A DNA stretch of 64,000 nt from Candidatus Eiseniibacteriota bacterium. GTDB taxonomy: Bacteria > Eisenbacteria > RBG-16-71-46 > CAZAMP01. The stretch spans positions 2,464,001-2,528,000 of the forward strand of contig OZ245046.1 of NCBI GenBank assembly GCA_965224245.1, read 5' to 3'. Shown here in pieces: positions 296-41,675 of the stretch (position 1 is its first letter; each line of letters starts with the position of its first letter). The notes under the pieces are model-generated. The model saw only the letters and a list, made by a program, of their open reading frames with translations. It did no database searches and was not told the DNA's origin. Both the position numbers and the translations under genes were made by a program.

Positions 296-2071
296 ATGCT
301 CGACCGCCCCAGGCCGCCTCGTCCACCGCGGACACGCGGCGCGTGGATCGGCCTCTCGCTCGGCGCCCTCCTGGCGCTGGCAGGGCCGGCGTCACGACCC
401 GCGGCGCTCGCCGAGACCCTCACTCTCACCCCCGAGTGGTCGGTCGACACCGGCGGATGAATCTTCGCCAACCCCGAGGTCTCGGGGGATCGGGTCTACG
501 TCGGATCGTGCAACGGGCGGTTCCAGTGCCGCGACCTCACCGACGGCTCGATCCGGTGGAGCTACGACGTCAGCGCCGACGGCGAGGCCCGGAGCTTCCA
601 CGGGAACATGCTGCTCCAGAAGAACGTGATCCTCGTCGGCACCGACCCCGAGGACGGCTACCTGTACGCGTTCGACCCGCAGACGGGCGAGGTACGCTGG
701 AAATGGTGGGCCGCTCCCGGGATCGGTACCGACCTGGTCGCGGGGCCCGATCTCGTCTACGCGGTGACGCTGGACGACGTGCTCGTGTGCCTCGACCTGG
801 AGACCGGCGCCGAGCAGTGGCGCAGCGTCCCCGAGACCACCGTCAGCTCCATGCTCACGCGCGGATCCACCCCGGCGCTCGAGGACGAGACGATCGTCTT
901 CGCCGGCGTGGCGGGCCGCGTCCAGGCGCTGGACGCGCGGACCGGCGCCGCCGGGTGGTCCACCGAGGTCGGGGGGCCGGTGACCACGTCGGTGGCCCTC
1001 CATCGCTCACGAGCGCTCGTCGGAACCGAGGCCGGCGTGCTCCACGCGCTCGATCGCACCACCGGGACCGTCCTCCGTTCGGTGTCGCTGCCCGGCTCGC
1101 CGCGCGGCGAGATCGTCACGACCGAGGCGGGGCTGGTGGTGCTCGTCGGCGAGGACGGCTGGCGAGCACGGCTGGTCGCGCTGGACGACGATCTGACCGT
1201 CGCGTGGGAGAGTGTCGCCACCGACGGCTCGCTCTGGACGAGCGCCCGCCCGACGCGAGCGGGCCGGTGGATCCTGGTCGGCACGGCCAGCGGCGAGCTG
1301 GCCGCGATCTCGTCCGACACCGGCGAGACCGACTGGACACTCCCGATCGAGCCCATGCGCGACTGGACCGGGGACGGCATCCGGAGCGCCTCCATCGTCG
1401 CCGGCCGCCTCATCGTGGGCACGATCGCCGGGCGACTCACGTCGTATCGACTCCCCCCGGAGATCCTGGCCGGGGCCGGGCCCGTTCGGCGGCCCCGCCC
1501 GCGTCCGGTGGCCATGGCGCCCACGTGAGCCGGCTGACCCGGCGAAGGGTCGCCGCTTCGGGGAAGCGGCCTGGATCACGACTGGACGGTCTCGCTGCGG
1601 TACGTGGATACCGGAACCGATCGGGCTCGCTGGCGTTCCACGATCAACCGGCGCGTGCTGCCGACGCTCTCGCTCGGGATCGAGTTCAACCCGGTCGTCG
1701 GCGAGGTCGGTCCGCTGGTCACGTGGTTCTTCGTCGGTGAGGGGCATGGCACACCCGCCGTCTTCGTCGGCACCAGCTCCGATCGGATCGGAACCGACGA
1801 GGGCGAGCAGAGCTACTACGCGACGGCGACCAAGCGGCTGCCGTGGTGGCCGGTCTCGGCCTACGTGACCGCCAACTACTCCGAGGCGGACGAGTCGTTC
1901 AACGTGCCCTTCGGGGGCACGATCAACCTCACCGAGACGCTGTCGATGCGTCCGATGTACGATGGCGAGCGCACGCATCTGATGGCCACGGCGGCCACCG
2001 AGCGGTTCGCGGTGTCGCTGATCGCAGTCTGGCTGGAGCGGGTCGGCGTCTCGGTCTCCACGGGCTTCTGA
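296..2071 (+). CDS. Predicted exported multi-selenocysteine protein: PQQ/BamB-like beta-propeller + UxxU linker + C-terminal beta-barrel-like domain (591 aa if all three UGAs are read through)
   Basis: ORFs 14..460, 608..1528 and 1604..2071 share one frame and are separated only by TGA at 458, 1526 and 1535. Signal peptide from ATG 296. The propeller repeat continues across TGA458 (WSVDTGG-U-IFANPEVSGDRVYVGSCNG). SECIS-like hairpins follow each TGA. Protein ends in ...VSTGF. Confidence 0.8.
461..490 (+). promoter_or_regulatory. Bacterial SECIS-like hairpin for UGA 458-460
   Basis: Stem CCCCGA (472-477)/TCGGGG (482-487) with apical loop GGTC (478-481) starting 18 nt after the UGA. Same loop sequence and nearly the same spacing as the E. 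coli fdhF SECIS. Confidence 0.8.
1540..1570 (+). promoter_or_regulatory. Two overlapping SECIS-like hairpins for the UxxU codons 1526 and 1535
   Basis: Hairpin A: CGGCGA-AGGG-TCGCCG (1540-1555), loop 18 nt after the first UGA. Hairpin B: GCCGCTTC-GGG-GAAGCGGC (1552-1570), loop 23 nt after the second UGA. Confidence 0.7.
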
Positions 2072-2097: not shown

Positions 2098-2769
2098 ATG
2101 CGCAAGCTCGTCCGTCACGCGATCGCGATCGTCGCGGTCGCCGCCTGCACCGCCGTGTTCGCCGATCCCGCCGAGCACCCGGACGAGGCGGTCTGCCGCA
2201 CGTGCGAGATCCGTGGCGGCGGGCACGGTCTCGAGAAGGTCGCCGCACACCGGGAGTACGAGGGCACGTTCTACTACTTCTGTGACCCGGGCTGTGCGGA
2301 CGCGTTCGATGCGTTCCCCGAAGCCTACGCCCACCAGCCCCTCCCGAGGCCGGCCCCCGACGTCACGTTCACCTCGCTCGACGGCTCGTCCGTTCCCCCG
2401 AGCGCGCTTCGCGGGCAGCACGTGCTCGTGGACTTCTGGGCCACGTGGTGCAAGCCCTGCGTGACGAGCATCCCCAAGCTCGTCGAGATCCAGGAAGAGT
2501 TCGGTGAGCGGGGCTTGCGCGTGGTCGGGGTCTCGATCGACGAGATCGAGGCCGATCGCGTCCGTGCGTTCGTCGACGAGAAGAACATGGCGTACACCGT
2601 GGCGCTGGACGGCGGCGACGAGCCGGCCTGGCTGGCCTATCGGGTGGCCGCGATTCCCGCGGCCTTCCTCGTCGATCCCGACGGTCGCATCGTGGCCGAG
2701 TGGAAGGGGGCGGTCGATCCCTCGCGAATCCGGGCCGAGATCGCCGACCGGCTCGGGGGGACGGACTAG
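2098..2769 (+). CDS. Exported YHS-domain + TlpA/ResA-like thioredoxin (redoxin) fusion
   Basis: Signal peptide; CxxC...YEGTFYYFCDPGC...F YHS signature; LVDFWATWCKPC and cis-Pro motif AAIPAAFLVD. Alternative start at 2089. Confidence 0.88.
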   Translation: MRKLVRHAIAIVAVAACTAVFADPAEHPDEAVCRTCEIRGGGHGLEKVAAHREYEGTFYYFCDPGCADAFDAFPEAYAHQPLPRPAPDVTFTSLDGSSVPPSALRGQHVLVDFWATWCKPCVTSIPKLVEIQEEFGERGLRVVGVSIDEIEADRVRAFVDEKNMAYTVALDGGDEPAWLAYRVAAIPAAFLVDPDGRIVAEWKGAVDPSRIRAEIADRLGGTD

Positions 2770-3769: not shown

Positions 3770-4381
3770 ATGTCGCCGACCGGGACGTTCGAGATCGCCC
3801 CCAGCGGACGGGCGAGGTGTCGCGGGTGCGGCCGTGCAATCGCCAAGGGCGAGATCCGCTTCGGCGAGCGAATGCCCAATCCCTTCGGTGACGGCGAGAT
3901 GACCCTCTGGTTCCATCCACGATGCGCCGCGTACAAGCGCCCCGAGCCGTTCCTGGACGCCCTGTCCTCGGATACGACTCACTCCGGTGAGCTGTCCGGA
4001 CGCGAGTCCCTGATCGACGCCGCGCGGTGCGGCGCCGCGCATCGCCGGCTACCCAGGCTGAGCGGCGCCGAGCGCGCGCCGAGCGGACGCGCTCGCTGCC
4101 GGTCCTGCCGAACGCTCATCGACAAGCAAAGCTGGCGGTTCTCACTGGTGTACTACGAAGAGGGTCGCTTCGAGCCCGCCGGCTTCATCCACGCGGGCTG
4201 CGCACCGGACTACTTCGAGACGACCGTCGTGACGGAGAGCGCGACGCCTCTCGTGGAGGGCGGCGAGCTTCTCGTGGAGCGCGCCGCACACTTCTCGCAG
4301 CTGGACGACGCGGATCGGTTGGCGCTCGCCGAGGCCGTGGCCGGCGGAGGTCCGTCCACGTCCCCGGTGGCGCTCCCGTGA
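3770..4381 (+). CDS. Tandem PARP-type zinc-finger protein
   Basis: Two repeats: APSGRARCRGC...WFHPRC and APSGRARCRSC...FIHAGC (CxxC...HxxC); AGGAGG RBS. Confidence 0.8.
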   Translation: MSPTGTFEIAPSGRARCRGCGRAIAKGEIRFGERMPNPFGDGEMTLWFHPRCAAYKRPEPFLDALSSDTTHSGELSGRESLIDAARCGAAHRRLPRLSGAERAPSGRARCRSCRTLIDKQSWRFSLVYYEEGRFEPAGFIHAGCAPDYFETTVVTESATPLVEGGELLVERAAHFSQLDDADRLALAEAVAGGGPSTSPVALP

Positions 4382-6867: not shown

Positions 6868-8466
6868 TCACTCCATCGCGGGAAGGCGCTCGTGGAACGG
6901 ATCCCGGAGCGTGCCGCGTCGGGCTCCCCGGGCGCCGGTCTCGTCGTCGAGAACGCGGACCGTCCACTCGTACAGCTGATCCGCCTCGTCGCGCGTGTTG
7001 CCGACGCAGGTCACGCCGACCTTTCCGAACTGCGAGAGCGCCCCGATCATGTGGAACAGCACGCCGGTCTGCGTCACCGGCCGGAAGCTGAGACCGTGCT
7101 GGGTCAGGATCTCGAGGAAGTCCTCGGGCAGAAGCCCGCGATAGGACGGCGAGGTCAGCGCGTCGGTCGAGAAGTAGAACTTCGGCCGGCCGTCCGGCGC
7201 GTGGAAGACACCGCTGTCGGCGTCCAGCGATCCGCAGGTCAGGAACTCCAGCGCCTGGAACGGATGCGTCGTTCCCCCCATCCGGAGGTTGATCTCGATC
7301 GCCGCGATCCGCCACGGCTCGCCCGGCTCGCGCCAGGCCAGGAAGTCCACCGCGACGCGACTGACGACCCCCTTGGCCGCCAGCGCGTCCGCGATCTTCC
7401 GGGCCTCGGCCTGGATCGCAACCCGGTAGTCGTCCGACGCGGGGAACCGGCAGCCGACGTACGCCTGCTTGTTCGGTCCGCCGAGCACCTGATCGTGAGA
7501 CGAGATGACCGCGTGCGTCCCGTCGGGATGGATGCGCATCTGGACGCTCGGTGATCGTACCTCGCTCGCCTCGATGAACTCCTCCACCACGCCGCCCATC
7601 TCGCTCAGCTTGCGGAAGAAGCTCCCGGGCGTCTCCTCCTCGGCGTTGAACACGAGGTGGTCGAGCGCGGCGTCGATCGCCCGGACACGCGCGGCCCGCT
7701 CGGTCGACGAGGGCGACGGGAACGTGAACATCGCGTTCCCCTCGCCCGAAAAGCTCTCGTCCAGCTTCACGACCGCCCGCTTCGAGGCCGGGCGCGCCTC
7801 GGCGAGGTCGGCCAGCGCCTCGGCGAACTCCCGTCTGGTGTGAAGCCCGTGTGAGCCGTGGGGATGGGGCACGCCGGCATCGGCGAACAGGTTCCGTCCC
7901 CCGCTCTTCGTCCCCAGCGCGCGCAGGTCGGGATCGAGCCCGTTGAGCGGAATGTCGAGCGCCAGCGCCAGACGTCGCTCCAGCTCGGTGGAGTTGAAGC
8001 ACGTCAGGTACGCCTGTCGCGGGTTGCCGATCCAGTGCTTGATTCGCTCGATCGCCCTCGGGCGCTCGAGGATCTTCTCGGTGAGCGCGCGGGAGCTGCT
8101 GTCCATCATCGACAGAAAGCCCAGCCGTTTCGACGCGTGGCTCGATGGCACGCCGACCAGGAGATGCAGGTAGTAGTCGATGATGTCCGGGTGGATCGGC
8201 TGGCTGGATAGATACAGAACGCGCGAGGACGGATGCCGTAGCCGCATCAGCGCGAAGAGCAGTCGCTCCTCGTAGCTGGGTACGCCGGAGATCTTCGCCA
8301 GCTCTTCCTGGTCGAAGCTCAGCGACGGCACGACCACCGAGGTATGTTCGAGTGGACGGGCGCCCTGGATCCTGTTCCAGAGCGGTGGGAGCCGCTTCTG
8401 GAGCTCCAGGAACGCCGAGCGCTCCGTCTCGGAGGCAGCGCCCCGATGAGCGGGCATGCTGGTCAT
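6868..8466 (-). CDS. PGM1/BesA-like ATP-grasp peptide ligase
   Basis: VVVPSLS...YEERLLF N-terminal region; ATP-grasp motifs VVKLDESFSGEGN, VEEFI, SPSVQ, IEINLRMGGTTHP. Confidence 0.85.
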   Translation of the reverse strand: MTSMPAHRGAASETERSAFLELQKRLPPLWNRIQGARPLEHTSVVVPSLSFDQEELAKISGVPSYEERLLFALMRLRHPSSRVLYLSSQPIHPDIIDYYLHLLVGVPSSHASKRLGFLSMMDSSSRALTEKILERPRAIERIKHWIGNPRQAYLTCFNSTELERRLALALDIPLNGLDPDLRALGTKSGGRNLFADAGVPHPHGSHGLHTRREFAEALADLAEARPASKRAVVKLDESFSGEGNAMFTFPSPSSTERAARVRAIDAALDHLVFNAEEETPGSFFRKLSEMGGVVEEFIEASEVRSPSVQMRIHPDGTHAVISSHDQVLGGPNKQAYVGCRFPASDDYRVAIQAEARKIADALAAKGVVSRVAVDFLAWREPGEPWRIAAIEINLRMGGTTHPFQALEFLTCGSLDADSGVFHAPDGRPKFYFSTDALTSPSYRGLLPEDFLEILTQHGLSFRPVTQTGVLFHMIGALSQFGKVGVTCVGNTRDEADQLYEWTVRVLDDETGARGARRGTLRDPFHERLPAME

Positions 8467-12869: not shown

Positions 12870-14300
12870 CTACCGCACGACGACGATCCGATGCACGGCC
12901 TGCAACAACCCGTTTCGCAGCCCGACGTGATAGACCCCGGGCGCAACCCGGCGTCCCAGGCGATCGGTGCCGTCCCAGAGCACGTCGCCGGCGGCGGTGG
13001 CGATCGGCGAGGCGATCCGCCGGCCCGACGCGTCGACGACGACGGCATCGGCGCCCACCAGCGCATCGCCGACGATGAGATGGACCGCGCCCCGCGTCGG
13101 GTTCGGCGTCAGCGACCGCAGCAGCACCGGGGAGGCCGGCGTCTCGGCGACCGAGATCAGCGGGTCGCCCTCGGCGACGTACACGTTCCAGCTCCCGCTC
13201 GAGTCGTCGCACCACGCAACCGCCACCTCGCCCCCGGAGTTCGTGGTCACCGACGGCTCGCGCACGTCGCGTCCGATCCCCAGCTCCTGATCGAACGTCC
13301 AGGTGCCCGAGAGATTCCAGGCGACGATCAGACGCTCGTCGACCATCGACAGCGACTCGTCCCAGGACTCGTGTCGCCACGCGAGAACCGGCCGTCCGAC
13401 CTGGGTCAGGTGCAGCCACAGCTCCTGCGGCCACTCGAACAGAGTTCCCGTGTGTCCGGTGCCGATCGCGTCGGCGTCGCCGAACGCGCCACCGGTCCCC
13501 GTCGCGACGCTCACCTGGTTGCACGGACACGTGGGCTGCTGGCCGTGCGCGGCCAGCGCCATGGTCCACGTGTTCGGGTCGACGGCGAGATCGAAGCGGA
13601 TACCGGCGCCCTCCATCACCGGCGATGCCGGCTGCCACGTGGTGCCGTCGAACTGGCGTCCCTGCACGCCGGGGAACGCCGCCCCCGTATCGAGCCAGGT
13701 CACCAGCAGTCGATCCTCGGCGTCGACCGGGCTCAGCTCGACGGAGAGTTCACCGATCGGATCGACCGCGATCGGTCCGGCCAGGATCAGCGGCGCGGAC
13801 CACCCCTCGGTGACGAGCTCGGAGAAGAGCACGTGGAAGACGCCGCTTCCCTCGTCCAGCTCGGCCCAGGCCACGTGGGGCCCCGAGGCCTTCGCGGGAG
13901 ACGGATCGATCGGCGTGCCGAGCCCGGCGCTCCCGACCACGTCGGCGTCGTGCCACGTCCCGCTCTTCCAGCTCCGGAAACGAACCTGATCGGCGTCGTC
14001 TGACCAGACGACGTAGATCTCGTTTCACCTGAGACAGGTGTAGTGGTCGAAGTCGTGCCCGACGCCCACGGTCTCGATTGGACCCCATCCCCCCTCGCTC
14101 TGGTCCTGGTGGAGGATCTCGTCGCCTTCCTGCCAGAGCAGGTGCCGGACGTCGAACGCGTCGGTCGTGAGGATGGGAGCCGTCGACGGGATCGGCGTCG
14201 TGGTGTGCTGGGTCTCGATCCACCCGGCCGCCACCGGCGACGAGACCGTCGCCAGGAGCGTGACGACCGCGGCGGCGCCGACGGGGCGTGGCGCGGGCAT
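12870..14300 (-). CDS. Predicted secreted selenoprotein (CxxU at 89-92) with propeller-like repeats and FlgD-like C-terminal domain (476 aa)
   Basis: ORFs 14025..14300 and 12870..13940 are in the same frame, joined by a single TGA: HYTCLR-U-NEIYVVWSDD. Signal peptide with GAGGAGG RBS; SECIS hairpin; C-terminal PNP...DASGRRI...WDGTDRLGRRVAPGVY. Confidence 0.85.
13994..14013 (-). promoter_or_regulatory. Bacterial SECIS-like hairpin for UGA at 14027-14025
   Basis: Minus strand CGTCGTCT-GGTC-AGACGACG: perfect 8-bp stem starting 12 nt after the UGA, GGUC loop starting at +20. Confidence 0.85.
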
Positions 14301-41598: not shown

Positions 41599-41675
41599 TG
41601 GCGTCCCGGACGGGATTTGAACCCGTGTTGCCGGCGTGAAAGGCCGGTGTCCTGACCTGGCTAGACGACCGGGAC
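41599..41675 (-). tRNA. tRNA-Glu (TTC)
   Basis: Acceptor GTCCCGG/CCGGGAC + G-CCA; anticodon arm CCGGC-CTTTCAC-GCCGG; T arm GGTTCAAATCC. Confidence 0.97.

Follow-up and report, generated by a model that had tools for sequence, protein, structure and literature searches.

An in-frame TGA is almost certainly a selenocysteine codon in the gene for a secreted eight-bladed PQQ-like propeller protein of a Candidatus Eiseniibacteriota bacterium

Comparison of homologous loci indicated that the TGA codon at position 458 of the DNA analysed here (64,000 nucleotides, referred to as the window) is almost certainly read as selenocysteine (Sec) and lies in the gene for a secreted propeller with eight blades. 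The gene at 296-1528 very likely specifies a secreted, PQQ-like propeller of about 40 kDa in which UGA55 is read as Sec and forms part of a putative redox centre. The following features, all on the forward strand, were assigned:

296-1528, +, selenoprotein gene of 410 codons, the 55th of which specifies Sec, and a terminal TGA at 1526-1528
296-409 (end approximate), +, signal-peptide-like N-terminus with a basic stretch, the hydrophobic segment LSLGALLALAG and AALA, recognised by eye from the translation
458-460, +, in-frame TGA read as Sec (U55)
461-471, +, spacer of 11 nt between UGA and hairpin, read from the sequence
472-487, +, SECIS-like hairpin with stem arms CCCCGA (472-477) and TCGGGG (482-487) and the apical loop GGUC (478-481)
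509-511, +, TGC codon of Cys72 in GSCNG, which is proposed to pair with Sec55
596-601, +, codons of the FH motif (Phe101-His102), a hallmark of the family
608-1528, +, truncated ORF of 306 amino acids obtained by gene calling with table 11, lacking the signal peptide, U55, C72 and H102

The ORF listing and the translation with TGA read as U showed that the frame starting at ATG 296 was unbroken except for TGA 458 and gave one protein of 410 residues with U as residue 55. Relatives aligned with this product on either side of the TGA, and Pfam assigned it to PQQ_2 (5.8e-40). The conserved frame extended upstream of the TGA and included the signal peptide, W48 and G54; all full-length family members possessed a comparable hydrophobic N-terminus in frame 5' of the TGA.

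The preliminary description had proposed a Sec codon with an fdhF-like hairpin at this site and had named the homologues as the place to check it. When the homologues were inspected, both elements turned out to be conserved, and Cys occurred at the site in four relatives. TGA was present at the identical aligned codon in all 20 homologous loci with DNA, which came from several phyla (the window, L037, L036, L065 to L077 and L080 to L083; L037 is the same gene as L007 and L078 and was counted once). TAA, TAG or a sense codon was found at the site in none of these loci, even where protein identity was as low as about 30%. Four proteins (P0108, P0117, P0208 and P0213) had Cys at the Sec site, read straight through and had kept C72, while P0106 had Ala at the Sec site and Val at position 72. 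Around the Sec site G54, P60, V62, G64 and C72 were conserved. The homologue L084 from G005 lacked the Sec blade.

If the TGA were a true stop, the gene would be a pseudogene, the result of a sequencing error, or two genes, the first a short ORF and the second a propeller with a start further downstream. Gene calling with table 11 yields exactly that, and GTG, a possible start codon, follows the TGA in many relatives, with 25 of the 66 truncated database representatives beginning there. However, it is specifically TGA that occurs in 20 of 20 loci, the coding sequence is conserved in frame on both sides, and the homologues with Cys are single continuous proteins. The window has ATC, not a start codon, directly 3' of the TGA, and translation from the next in-frame start (608) would forgo C72 and F101-H102; the product of the upstream ORF would amount to a signal peptide without a cargo. 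In one clade, moreover, no variable site falls on the TGA and the hairpin. A true stop is therefore extremely unlikely.

The SECIS of E. coli fdhF has a GGUC apical loop and lies 11 nt from the UGA. The arrangement in the window, UGA, 11 nt and CCCCGA-GGUC-UCGGGG, was exactly as first described and in frame. It resembles the fdhF type in its in-frame UGA, its short stem-loop within the ORF and its GGUC loop, but differs from it by a stem of 6 bp, by having no evident bulged U and, in one clade, by a slipped CGUGU loop. Taken alone, the hairpin of the window is not beyond chance. Its 81-nt context had a folding energy of -31.2 kcal/mol (z -0.11), which was matched in 90 of 200 shuffles; a piece of 35 nt folded into the hairpin with -11.2 kcal/mol (z -0.51), which was equalled by 56 of 200 shuffles. 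As the DNA is G+C-rich, the thermodynamics of a single sequence are uninformative. A scan of the 6.9-Mb genome yielded 471 hairpins with a GGTC loop and a stem of at least 6 bp, and 40 distinct TGA sites were located 9-13 nt upstream of a GGTC-loop hairpin. At gathering thresholds, Rfam gave nothing at the hairpin, and a tRNA was its sole match.

It is the comparison across loci, not the single sequence, that places the TGA and the hairpin above chance. A hairpin was present in 20 of 20 loci, 10-13 nt 3' of the TGA, with a stem of 5-7 bp in the relatives. The apical loops were GGUC, AGGUUG, GGUCUU or CGUGU, and alignment columns 43 and 44 (G and T) were invariant in all 20 loci. Bacterial SECIS elements are expected to carry a guanosine (G/U) in a small loop at their apex, and every one of these loop types does. 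The loop of the window starts 17 nt after the UGA, inside the range of 16-37 nt that is quoted for the apical loops of bacterial SECIS elements in a passage of PMC10778597.

The pairing was tested on 16 loci and then on 18 distinct sequences. In the hairpin register 88.1% of the cells were paired in the 18 distinct sequences as compared to 76.5% in shuffles, a value reached by none of 500 shuffles, though kinship makes this significance overstated; controls with slid partners gave only 40-62%. The covariation score was 0.370 versus 0.150 in shuffles (0 of 500), a significance likewise inflated by the relatedness of the sequences. The number of pairs altered on both sides (3 versus 1.9) was not above that in shuffles (90 of 500), and RNAalifold recovered from the 84-nt alignment just the four inner pairs and a second, weak helix. 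One stem pair varied from C-G in L075 over U-G in L065 to U-A in L076, and L081 retained a 5-bp hairpin despite replacement of Gly by Arg. In the clade of L037 (6 of the 18 distinct rows) pair 40-47 was broken in the common register, and the hairpin, with the loop CGUGU, requires a slip by one base. Since conserved codons for Pro (CCN) and Gly (GGN) are located in the stem arms, part of the pairing is due to them. In a clade of five sequences, segments of 36 nt contained a median of 8 variable sites, and the value dropped to zero only over the TGA and the hairpin.

The host genome encodes SelA (7.2e-128), the SelB wing domain (1.9e-15), tRNA-SeC(tca) and SelD (5.5e-113). The selD gene has an in-frame TGA of its own, which is followed after 12 nt by a hairpin with the loop GGGUC. 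SelA was also present in all seven genomes with the TGA form, i.e. that of the window and six others; as 189 of the 206 genomes of the class possess SelA, this co-occurrence is not discriminating. Sequence by itself cannot prove insertion of selenium, and the UGA might be read as an ordinary residue, such as Trp, Cys or Gly, by a near-cognate tRNA or under a reassigned code. The hairpin would then only stimulate read-through, as hairpins 3' of stop codons can do. On the other hand, TGA is a normal stop in this genome, as seen at the end of the gene itself and from selA and selB, which are free of internal stops; the Sec machinery is complete, and the hairpin matches the host selD element in distance and G/U loop. 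Furthermore, the sole sense residue found repeatedly at the site was Cys (four proteins), the usual counterpart of Sec. Translation as an ordinary residue is thus very unlikely. The initial proposal of a Sec codon with a SECIS-like hairpin was borne out by the invariable TGA, the compensatory changes in the stem, the Cys homologues and the full machinery, and on the comparative evidence codon 55 is almost certainly decoded as Sec, presumably by SelB, the Sec-tRNA and the hairpin 11 nt downstream.

When the single protein served as query, a word-based search retrieved mostly generic PQQ proteins. On the basis of the alignments, the window gene is the founding example of a widespread family with presumably mostly Sec-containing members and the pattern G-U-[IV]...P-x-V-x-G-D...G-[SFY]-C-x-G...F-H. 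Among the best 150 matches in a library of 1.8 billion proteins, the family accounted for 66 or more clusters (50% identity), and MAGs with the labels Eisenbacteria, Blastocatellia and KSB1 contained it. Its defining features are the predicted U55, C72 and F101-H102, all of which are missing from generic PQQ propellers. C72 was present in 60 of the 61 representatives covering the position (the exception being P0106) and in all 10 aligned loci. The FH motif occurred in all 78 aligned rows that covered it and in 72 of the 92 proteins of a second search, in which 17 full-length generic PQQ proteins had neither the Sec/Cys site nor C72 nor FH. P0025, which is of similar length, was rejected as a relative as it lacks the family motifs, and the members of 54-57 amino acids in the cluster of P0108 were rejected as unrelated.

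Proteins of this family are cut at the UGA by gene callers, and the remainder is named BamB. A downstream mis-start of database homologues had been predicted, and 66 of the 69 representatives did begin at or after the codon that follows the TGA, 25 of them exactly at that codon. The window's own entry (P0003) comprises 306 amino acids from ATG 608, with 100% identity over 74% of the query. With Sec in the 66 inferred from the protein starts, the 69 representatives consist of 66 presumed Sec forms, two Cys forms and one Ala form.

The window protein is similar to propellers of the BamB and YxaL type, all being extracytoplasmic with an N-terminal signal and PQQ_2 repeats; Foldseek comparisons with BamB chains gave E values of about 1e-21 and TM scores of about 0.7-0.85. 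BamB has a lipoprotein signal with a lipobox cysteine. By contrast, inspection of the N-terminus of the window protein by eye (...LSLGALLALAGPASRPAALAETL) revealed no Cys and thus no lipobox cysteine, and BamB is without Sec, without a counterpart of C72 and without FH. The scores with TIGR03300 (111.8 bits, equivalog cut-off 285.2) and NF008351 (92.7 versus 423) were far below the cut-offs. The same type of repeat is found in PQQ-dependent alcohol and methanol dehydrogenases (TIGR03075, 8.7e-18), but the score of 64.2 bits compares to a cut-off of 480, and the window protein is about 200 residues shorter. In tblastn comparisons with the dehydrogenase-like loci L053, L056 and L058 the Sec fell on the second Cys of an ACC or CC pair just before a blade, a placement to be read with the preference of BLAST for C-C matches in mind. 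The family profile aligned with 1kv9_A from its position 39 onwards, i.e. from the Sec column, and from residue 106 of the chain, which we take to be about the place of the active-site vicinal disulfide of that protein. As a lead, the Sec site may therefore correspond to the vicinal-disulfide position of quinoproteins.

Tetrathionate hydrolase is a PQQ-like propeller without the PQQ cofactor, and if this holds, the scaffold should be able to carry a catalytic site of its own. The family profile matched this enzyme (PDB 6l8a and 7cqy) with an E value of 2.9e-18 at profile positions 148-356; these are later blades outside the Sec region, tetrathionate hydrolase has no Sec, and no functional relation is implied. 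With the Trx, Prx-like, DsbA-like and TlpA-like selenoproteins (UxxC/CxxU) the window protein shares a single Sec, a partner Cys and the existence of Cys homologues. It differs from them in having no thioredoxin fold, in the separation of Sec and Cys by 17 residues in different propeller loops, and in Sec forms being far commoner than Cys forms (66 presumed versus 2 among 69 representatives). Several thiol-oxidoreductase selenoprotein families are also exported (PMC13188914, Table 1). That table, which dates from 2026 and covers 119 families and subfamilies of prokaryotic selenoproteins, contains no PQQ, BamB or propeller entry, and the terms 'PQQ' and 'propeller' do not occur in the text of the selenoproteome papers examined; Table S2 of deep-Sep and Additional file 1 of BSepDB may use another name. 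The NCBIfam selenoprotein models did not match the window protein.

The AlphaFold model (pLDDT 83.5, pTM 0.80) gave the eight-bladed BamB and Cake8 as top matches in Foldseek. When the N-terminal 91 residues were searched against PDB sequences, the top matches were solely idealised repeat designs and BamB. Sec had been expected in the first blade, and in the model U55 is indeed placed in the loop that leads to strand A (61-63) of that blade. Cys72 is predicted in the B-C turn of the same blade. At blade 2, His102 of the FH motif is predicted in the entry loop and Thr116-Asp117 in the B-C turn. The D-A and B-C loops of a propeller are on one face. Sec55, Cys72, His102 and Thr116-Asp117 would accordingly surround the mouth of the central channel on the same face and may constitute an extracytoplasmic redox centre. 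The suggested pairing of Sec with the Cys of GSCNG received indirect support from the near-invariance of C72 and from P0106, the sole exception at this position and also the sole Ala form; we infer a Sec55-Cys72 redox centre from these sequences and the model. In such a centre the attack on an oxidised or electrophilic substrate would fall to Sec. Cys72 would then resolve the intermediate by forming a selenenylsulfide, and the Sec-Cys pair would be regenerated by a thioredoxin-like protein of the periplasm. One possible reductant for the propeller protein is encoded in the downstream context:

2098-2769, +, YHS and Redoxin/AhpC-TSA (TlpA-like) gene (Pfam: AhpC-TSA 1.3e-21, Redoxin 1.3e-19, YHS 1.4e-7)

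A neighbour of the Redoxin type was kept in none of the 16 other loci with flanks, and P0187, a family member, had a borderline C-terminal Redoxin domain. No conserved gene partner was found across the 17 loci with flanks, in which the neighbours included methyltransferases (4), WD40 proteins (3), MFS proteins (2) and Redoxin (1); as partners are not conserved, the neighbourhood gives no function. The methyltransferases, which are SAM-dependent, adjoin the gene in L068, L069, L082 and L083, and that of L068 also matched TehB (1.6e-7). These enzymes and the metal-binding YHS domain of the window neighbour would also suit a different role, in which Sec is real but serves, with Cys72 and His102, as a ligand of a metal or metalloid (Cu, Hg, As, Se or Te); the three residues would then make up a site for its binding or transfer or be part of a metal cofactor. 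A Sec/Cys/His cluster is plausible for a soft metal, and several known selenoprotein families are metal-related (PMC13188914, Table 1). However, the propeller protein itself matched no metal-binding family and the neighbours are not conserved, while the joint loss of U and C in P0106 suits either model. A metal site is on balance improbable. The redox reading can be extended, tentatively and with considerable doubt, to an unrecognised class of extracytoplasmic selenoenzymes, namely a cofactor-free propeller with Sec, Cys and His at the channel mouth, at the spot of the quinoprotein vicinal disulfide. Because about 30 presumed Sec forms are counted for each Cys form, such enzymes might perform a chemistry poorly served by sulfur, for example the handling of selenium, sulfur or metalloids together with SAM-dependent methyltransferases.

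A second candidate selenoprotein (CxxU versus CxxC) is located at 12873-14300 on the reverse strand of the window and suggests that the selenoproteome of this lineage is under-explored. The propeller itself represents a new selenoprotein family on a PQQ-like beta-propeller, a fold without an entry among the 119 inventoried families (PMC13188914). Its members are systematically mis-annotated, with the signal peptide and the Sec blade dropped and the rest called BamB. Correction alters the predicted location (exported) and the predicted function (a catalytic centre) of hundreds of entries. The putative centre of U55, C72 and H102 is open to a direct test by mutagenesis, and as so strong a preponderance of Sec over Cys is uncommon among selenoprotein families, these proteins are a good place to ask what selenium contributes as compared to sulfur.

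The preliminary description had read an in-frame UGA, 11 nt and a CCCCGA-GGUC-UCGGGG hairpin in the sequence, and exactly this arrangement was found at 458-487 of the window:

458-460, forward strand: TGA, followed by an 11-nt spacer
472-487, forward strand: hairpin with arms CCCCGA (472-477) and TCGGGG (482-487) and loop GGTC (478-481)

The frame containing this TGA is opened by ATG 296 and closed by TGA 1526-1528. In the translation of 296-1528 with TGA read as U, U is residue 55 of 410, preceded by a signal-peptide-like N-terminus and followed by a PQQ-type propeller (Pfam PQQ_2, 5.8e-40). The sole product of ordinary gene calling in this region was a 306-aa ORF from ATG 608, and the protein's own entry in the public collection (P0003) is the same shortened form. 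Taken alone, the hairpin motif is unremarkable. The 81-nt TGA context folded no better than shuffled sequences (z -0.11), for the 35-nt piece that folded into the hairpin the energy was -11.2 kcal/mol (z -0.51), and Rfam gave no match at the site. A scan of the organism's own genome yielded 471 hairpins with a GGTC loop and at least 6 bp of stem, and 40 distinct TGA sites lay 9-13 nt upstream of such a hairpin. The UGA and the loop are separated by 17 nt, a distance within the range (16-37 nt) given for bacterial SECIS elements in a passage of PMC10778597.

Homologous DNA loci were collected in several scans. Among 61 related genomes, the best match outside the own genome was L007 (29-31% identity), in which the aligned position is likewise TGA and the downstream Cys is retained. 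A further scan, in which each species was represented by one genome, identified L037, from a MAG labelled Candidatus Eisenbacteria, and L036, from a MAG labelled Blastocatellia, both with TGA; L037 is the same gene as L007 and was counted once. The remaining 27 loci of that scan were generic PQQ proteins with other residues at the Sec site. All 13 loci from a metagenome scan had TGA at the site, and a profile search in the class (206 genomes) added four loci (L080-L083 from genomes G155, G168, G162 and G120). Overall, TGA occupied the same codon in 20 of 20 loci, none of which had TAA, TAG or a sense codon there. The upstream frame stays open in all 20, with a hydrophobic N-terminus and invariant W48 and G54. 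Two further observations concern L084, in genome G005, and L075. The former matched from residue 84 onward only, without the Sec blade; upstream of the match each of the three frames contains stops, and the locus may be a remnant. L075 (2399-3088) ends 188 codons past the TGA, compared with its close relative L065. Both look damaged.

The hairpin began 10-13 nt after the TGA in all 20 loci. Its loop was GGUC in the window, L066, L067, L074, L065, L075, L076, L080, L082 and L083, AGGUUG in L036, GGUCUU in L081, and CGUGU in the L037 clade, where the pairing register has slipped by one base. Pairing was counted in 18 distinct rows for a single shared helix of seven pairs, formed in the window by 471-477 and 482-488. 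In these rows, whose relatedness is a caveat on the statistics, standard pairs filled 88.1% of cells, against 76.5 ± 2.1% with the 3' letters shuffled (reached in 0 of 500 shuffles), and sliding the partner by 1-3 columns reduced pairing to 40-62%. The covariation score was 0.370 compared with 0.150 in shuffles (0/500), and the number of pairs with changes on both sides, three, was not above shuffles (90/500). An earlier count with 16 loci gave the same picture. The helix is closed by A-U in the window and by C-G in nine other rows. For the third pair L075 has C-G, L065 has U-G, and L076 and L066 have U-A; one outer pair varies among C-G, U-A, G-C and U-G.

As the stem arms encode conserved Pro and Gly residues, some of this pairing is due to the protein. 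In L081, Arg replaces Gly and a 5-bp hairpin is still kept. Within the L037 clade, 25% of sites varied among five full-length genes, with a median of 8 variable sites per 36-nt segment. The only segments of this length with zero variation were those starting 6-9 nt before the TGA, which cover TGA and hairpin; the segment starting at the TGA had one variable site. The hairpin of L081 and these invariant segments suggest that the RNA itself is constrained.

The genome encodes SelA (7.2e-128), a SelB winged-helix domain (1.9e-15) within a 671-codon frame, one tRNA-SeC with anticodon TCA, and SelD (5.5e-113), whose gene has one in-frame TGA of its own:

L003 1528 (own-genome selD locus, outside the window): TGA in the context GAG-U-ASKLGPG

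A 7-bp stem carrying a GGGUC loop follows twelve nucleotides after this TGA. An element of the same kind is thus used in a bona fide selenoprotein gene of the genome, which can serve as an internal reference for the SECIS type. SelA was found in all seven searchable genomes with the TGA form, a co-occurrence that tells little within the class, since SelA is present in 189 of its 206 genomes (a tally including G053, which is flagged unpublished and enters no other claim). Selenocysteine decoding at codon 55 is very probable, and the interpretation in the preliminary description was supported as a whole.

The own-genome scan for GGTC hairpins also revealed a second candidate in the window:

12873-14300, reverse strand: 476-codon frame of a candidate selenoprotein, TGA 14027-14025, hairpin about 14010-13991

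This frame has a signal-peptide-like start and the motif C-L-R-U, and its hairpin (8-bp stem, GGUC loop, z -3.18) follows 14 nt after the TGA. Three full-length homologues, from the related genomes G068, G064 and G027, carry CPIC, CSVC and CGVC at this site, so that, as judged from sequence, the motif reads as a classical CxxU/CxxC pair. The only Pfam family found for the product was a weak C-terminal match to FlgD_ig (0.0037). On contig C10 of the own genome, a TGA at 7593 on the minus strand is followed after 13 nt by a GGTC-loop hairpin, and the frame is open on either side of the TGA (138 and 289 codons); it is only a lead because long open frames are common in a G+C-rich genome.

Homologues had been expected to be mis-started downstream of the UGA in databases, and this was the case. 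A profile of ten full-length members (A4) was run on a library of 1.84 billion representatives, and its best 150 matches included 69 single-propeller proteins of less than 700 aa. For 66 of these, the first codon is the one directly behind the Sec site (25 proteins) or a later one; the codon directly behind the Sec site is GTG in many members. The other three span the site: P0108 and P0117 have Cys there and keep C72, while P0106 has Ala, and in it Val replaces the Cys that the other 60 of the 61 representatives covering position 72 have there. F101-H102 was present in 78 of 78 alignment rows covering it. A second, word-based search (A5), whose collection overlaps with that of A4 so that the counts are not additive, gave 92 further proteins. 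FH was found in 72 (70 truncated, and the full-length P0208 and P0213 with Cys at both the Sec site and 72), 17 were full-length generic PQQ proteins without Sec/Cys site, C72 or FH, and 3 were fragments. We infer a TGA upstream of the truncated entries. The source names are 'outer membrane protein assembly factor BamB' or 'PQQ-binding-like beta-propeller repeat protein', as for MEK7728727.1 from a candidate division KSB1 MAG. A few representatives carry C-terminal fusions to DUF6265 (P0121, P0180), Glyoxalase/VOC (P0191) or, borderline, Redoxin (P0187).

AlphaFold with a ten-row alignment predicted a confident propeller (mean pLDDT 83.5, pTM 0.80), and the nearest solved folds were eight-bladed BamB, the designed Cake8 and YxaL. 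Identity with BamB was rejected (111.8 bits against a cut-off of 285.2, no lipobox Cys visible), as was that with quinoprotein dehydrogenases (64 bits against 480). In the model residues 46-51 form a strand, and U55 lies in the loop ahead of strand A (61-63) entering blade 1, in keeping with the first-blade position proposed for Sec. C72 is in the B-C turn of blade 1 (strand B 66-70, strand C 75-80), F101-H102 in the loop ahead of strand A (106-108) of blade 2, and T116-D117 in the B-C turn of that blade. In propellers, one face carries both the D-A and the B-C loops, arranged about the central channel, and clustering of the family-specific invariant residues is therefore expected there. This predicted clustering and the joint loss of U and C72 in P0106 support the earlier suggestion that Sec pairs with the GSCNG cysteine but do not demonstrate it, and we consider the chances of a Sec55-Cys72 redox couple to be even. 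In tblastn alignments to the quinoprotein-dehydrogenase-like loci L053, L056 and L058, the residue aligned with Sec was the second of two adjacent Cys. The family profile aligns to chain 1kv9_A from the Sec column (profile position 39) and residue 106 onward; the vicinal active-site disulfide of these dehydrogenases would be located there, and this correspondence is worth recording as a lead.

No conserved neighbour was found among 17 loci with usable flanks. The following genes were located in the window and beside the gene in other loci:

1604-2071, forward strand: 155-aa ORF without Pfam family, separating the selenoprotein and YHS-Redoxin genes
2098-2769, forward strand: fusion of YHS metal-binding domain and Redoxin/AhpC-TSA thioredoxin fold (TlpA-like, WCKPC), with N-terminal hydrophobic segment
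2939-3640, forward strand: PAS and LuxR/GerE regulator, an ordinary neighbour
3770-4381, forward strand: protein with two zf-PARP zinc fingers, an ordinary neighbour
41599-41675, reverse strand: tRNA-Glu (TTC), an ordinary neighbour
L068 1502-2365, L069 146-988, L082 2658-3251, L083 749-1396: SAM-methyltransferases

The YHS-Redoxin protein, encoded two genes downstream, is a possible periplasmic reductant for the selenoprotein. The methyltransferases are of class I and directly adjoin the gene in these four loci from two clades; that of L068 also matches TehB (tellurite resistance, 1.6e-7). WD40 proteins adjoin the gene in L065, L075 and L082, and MFS transporters in L072 and L083. Neighbours and fusions are compatible with thiol-dependent or metalloid chemistry and too thin to name a substrate.

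A full-text literature search, covering listings and the beginnings of abstracts, gave no description of a PQQ-, BamB- or propeller-type selenoprotein. No such protein is contained in the whole of Table 1 (119 families and subfamilies) of a 2026 review (PMC13188914), and 'PQQ' and 'propeller' do not occur in this review or in the main-text passages covered of the deep-Sep (PMC12013277) and BSepDB (PMC13326102) articles. NCBIfam release 20 contained no selenoprotein model matching the window protein. On these grounds the protein was filed as a new family among the bacterial selenoproteins. The family is unusual in two respects: its scaffold is a propeller and not a thioredoxin fold, with Sec and Cys placed on different loops, and its Sec forms strongly exceed the Cys forms.
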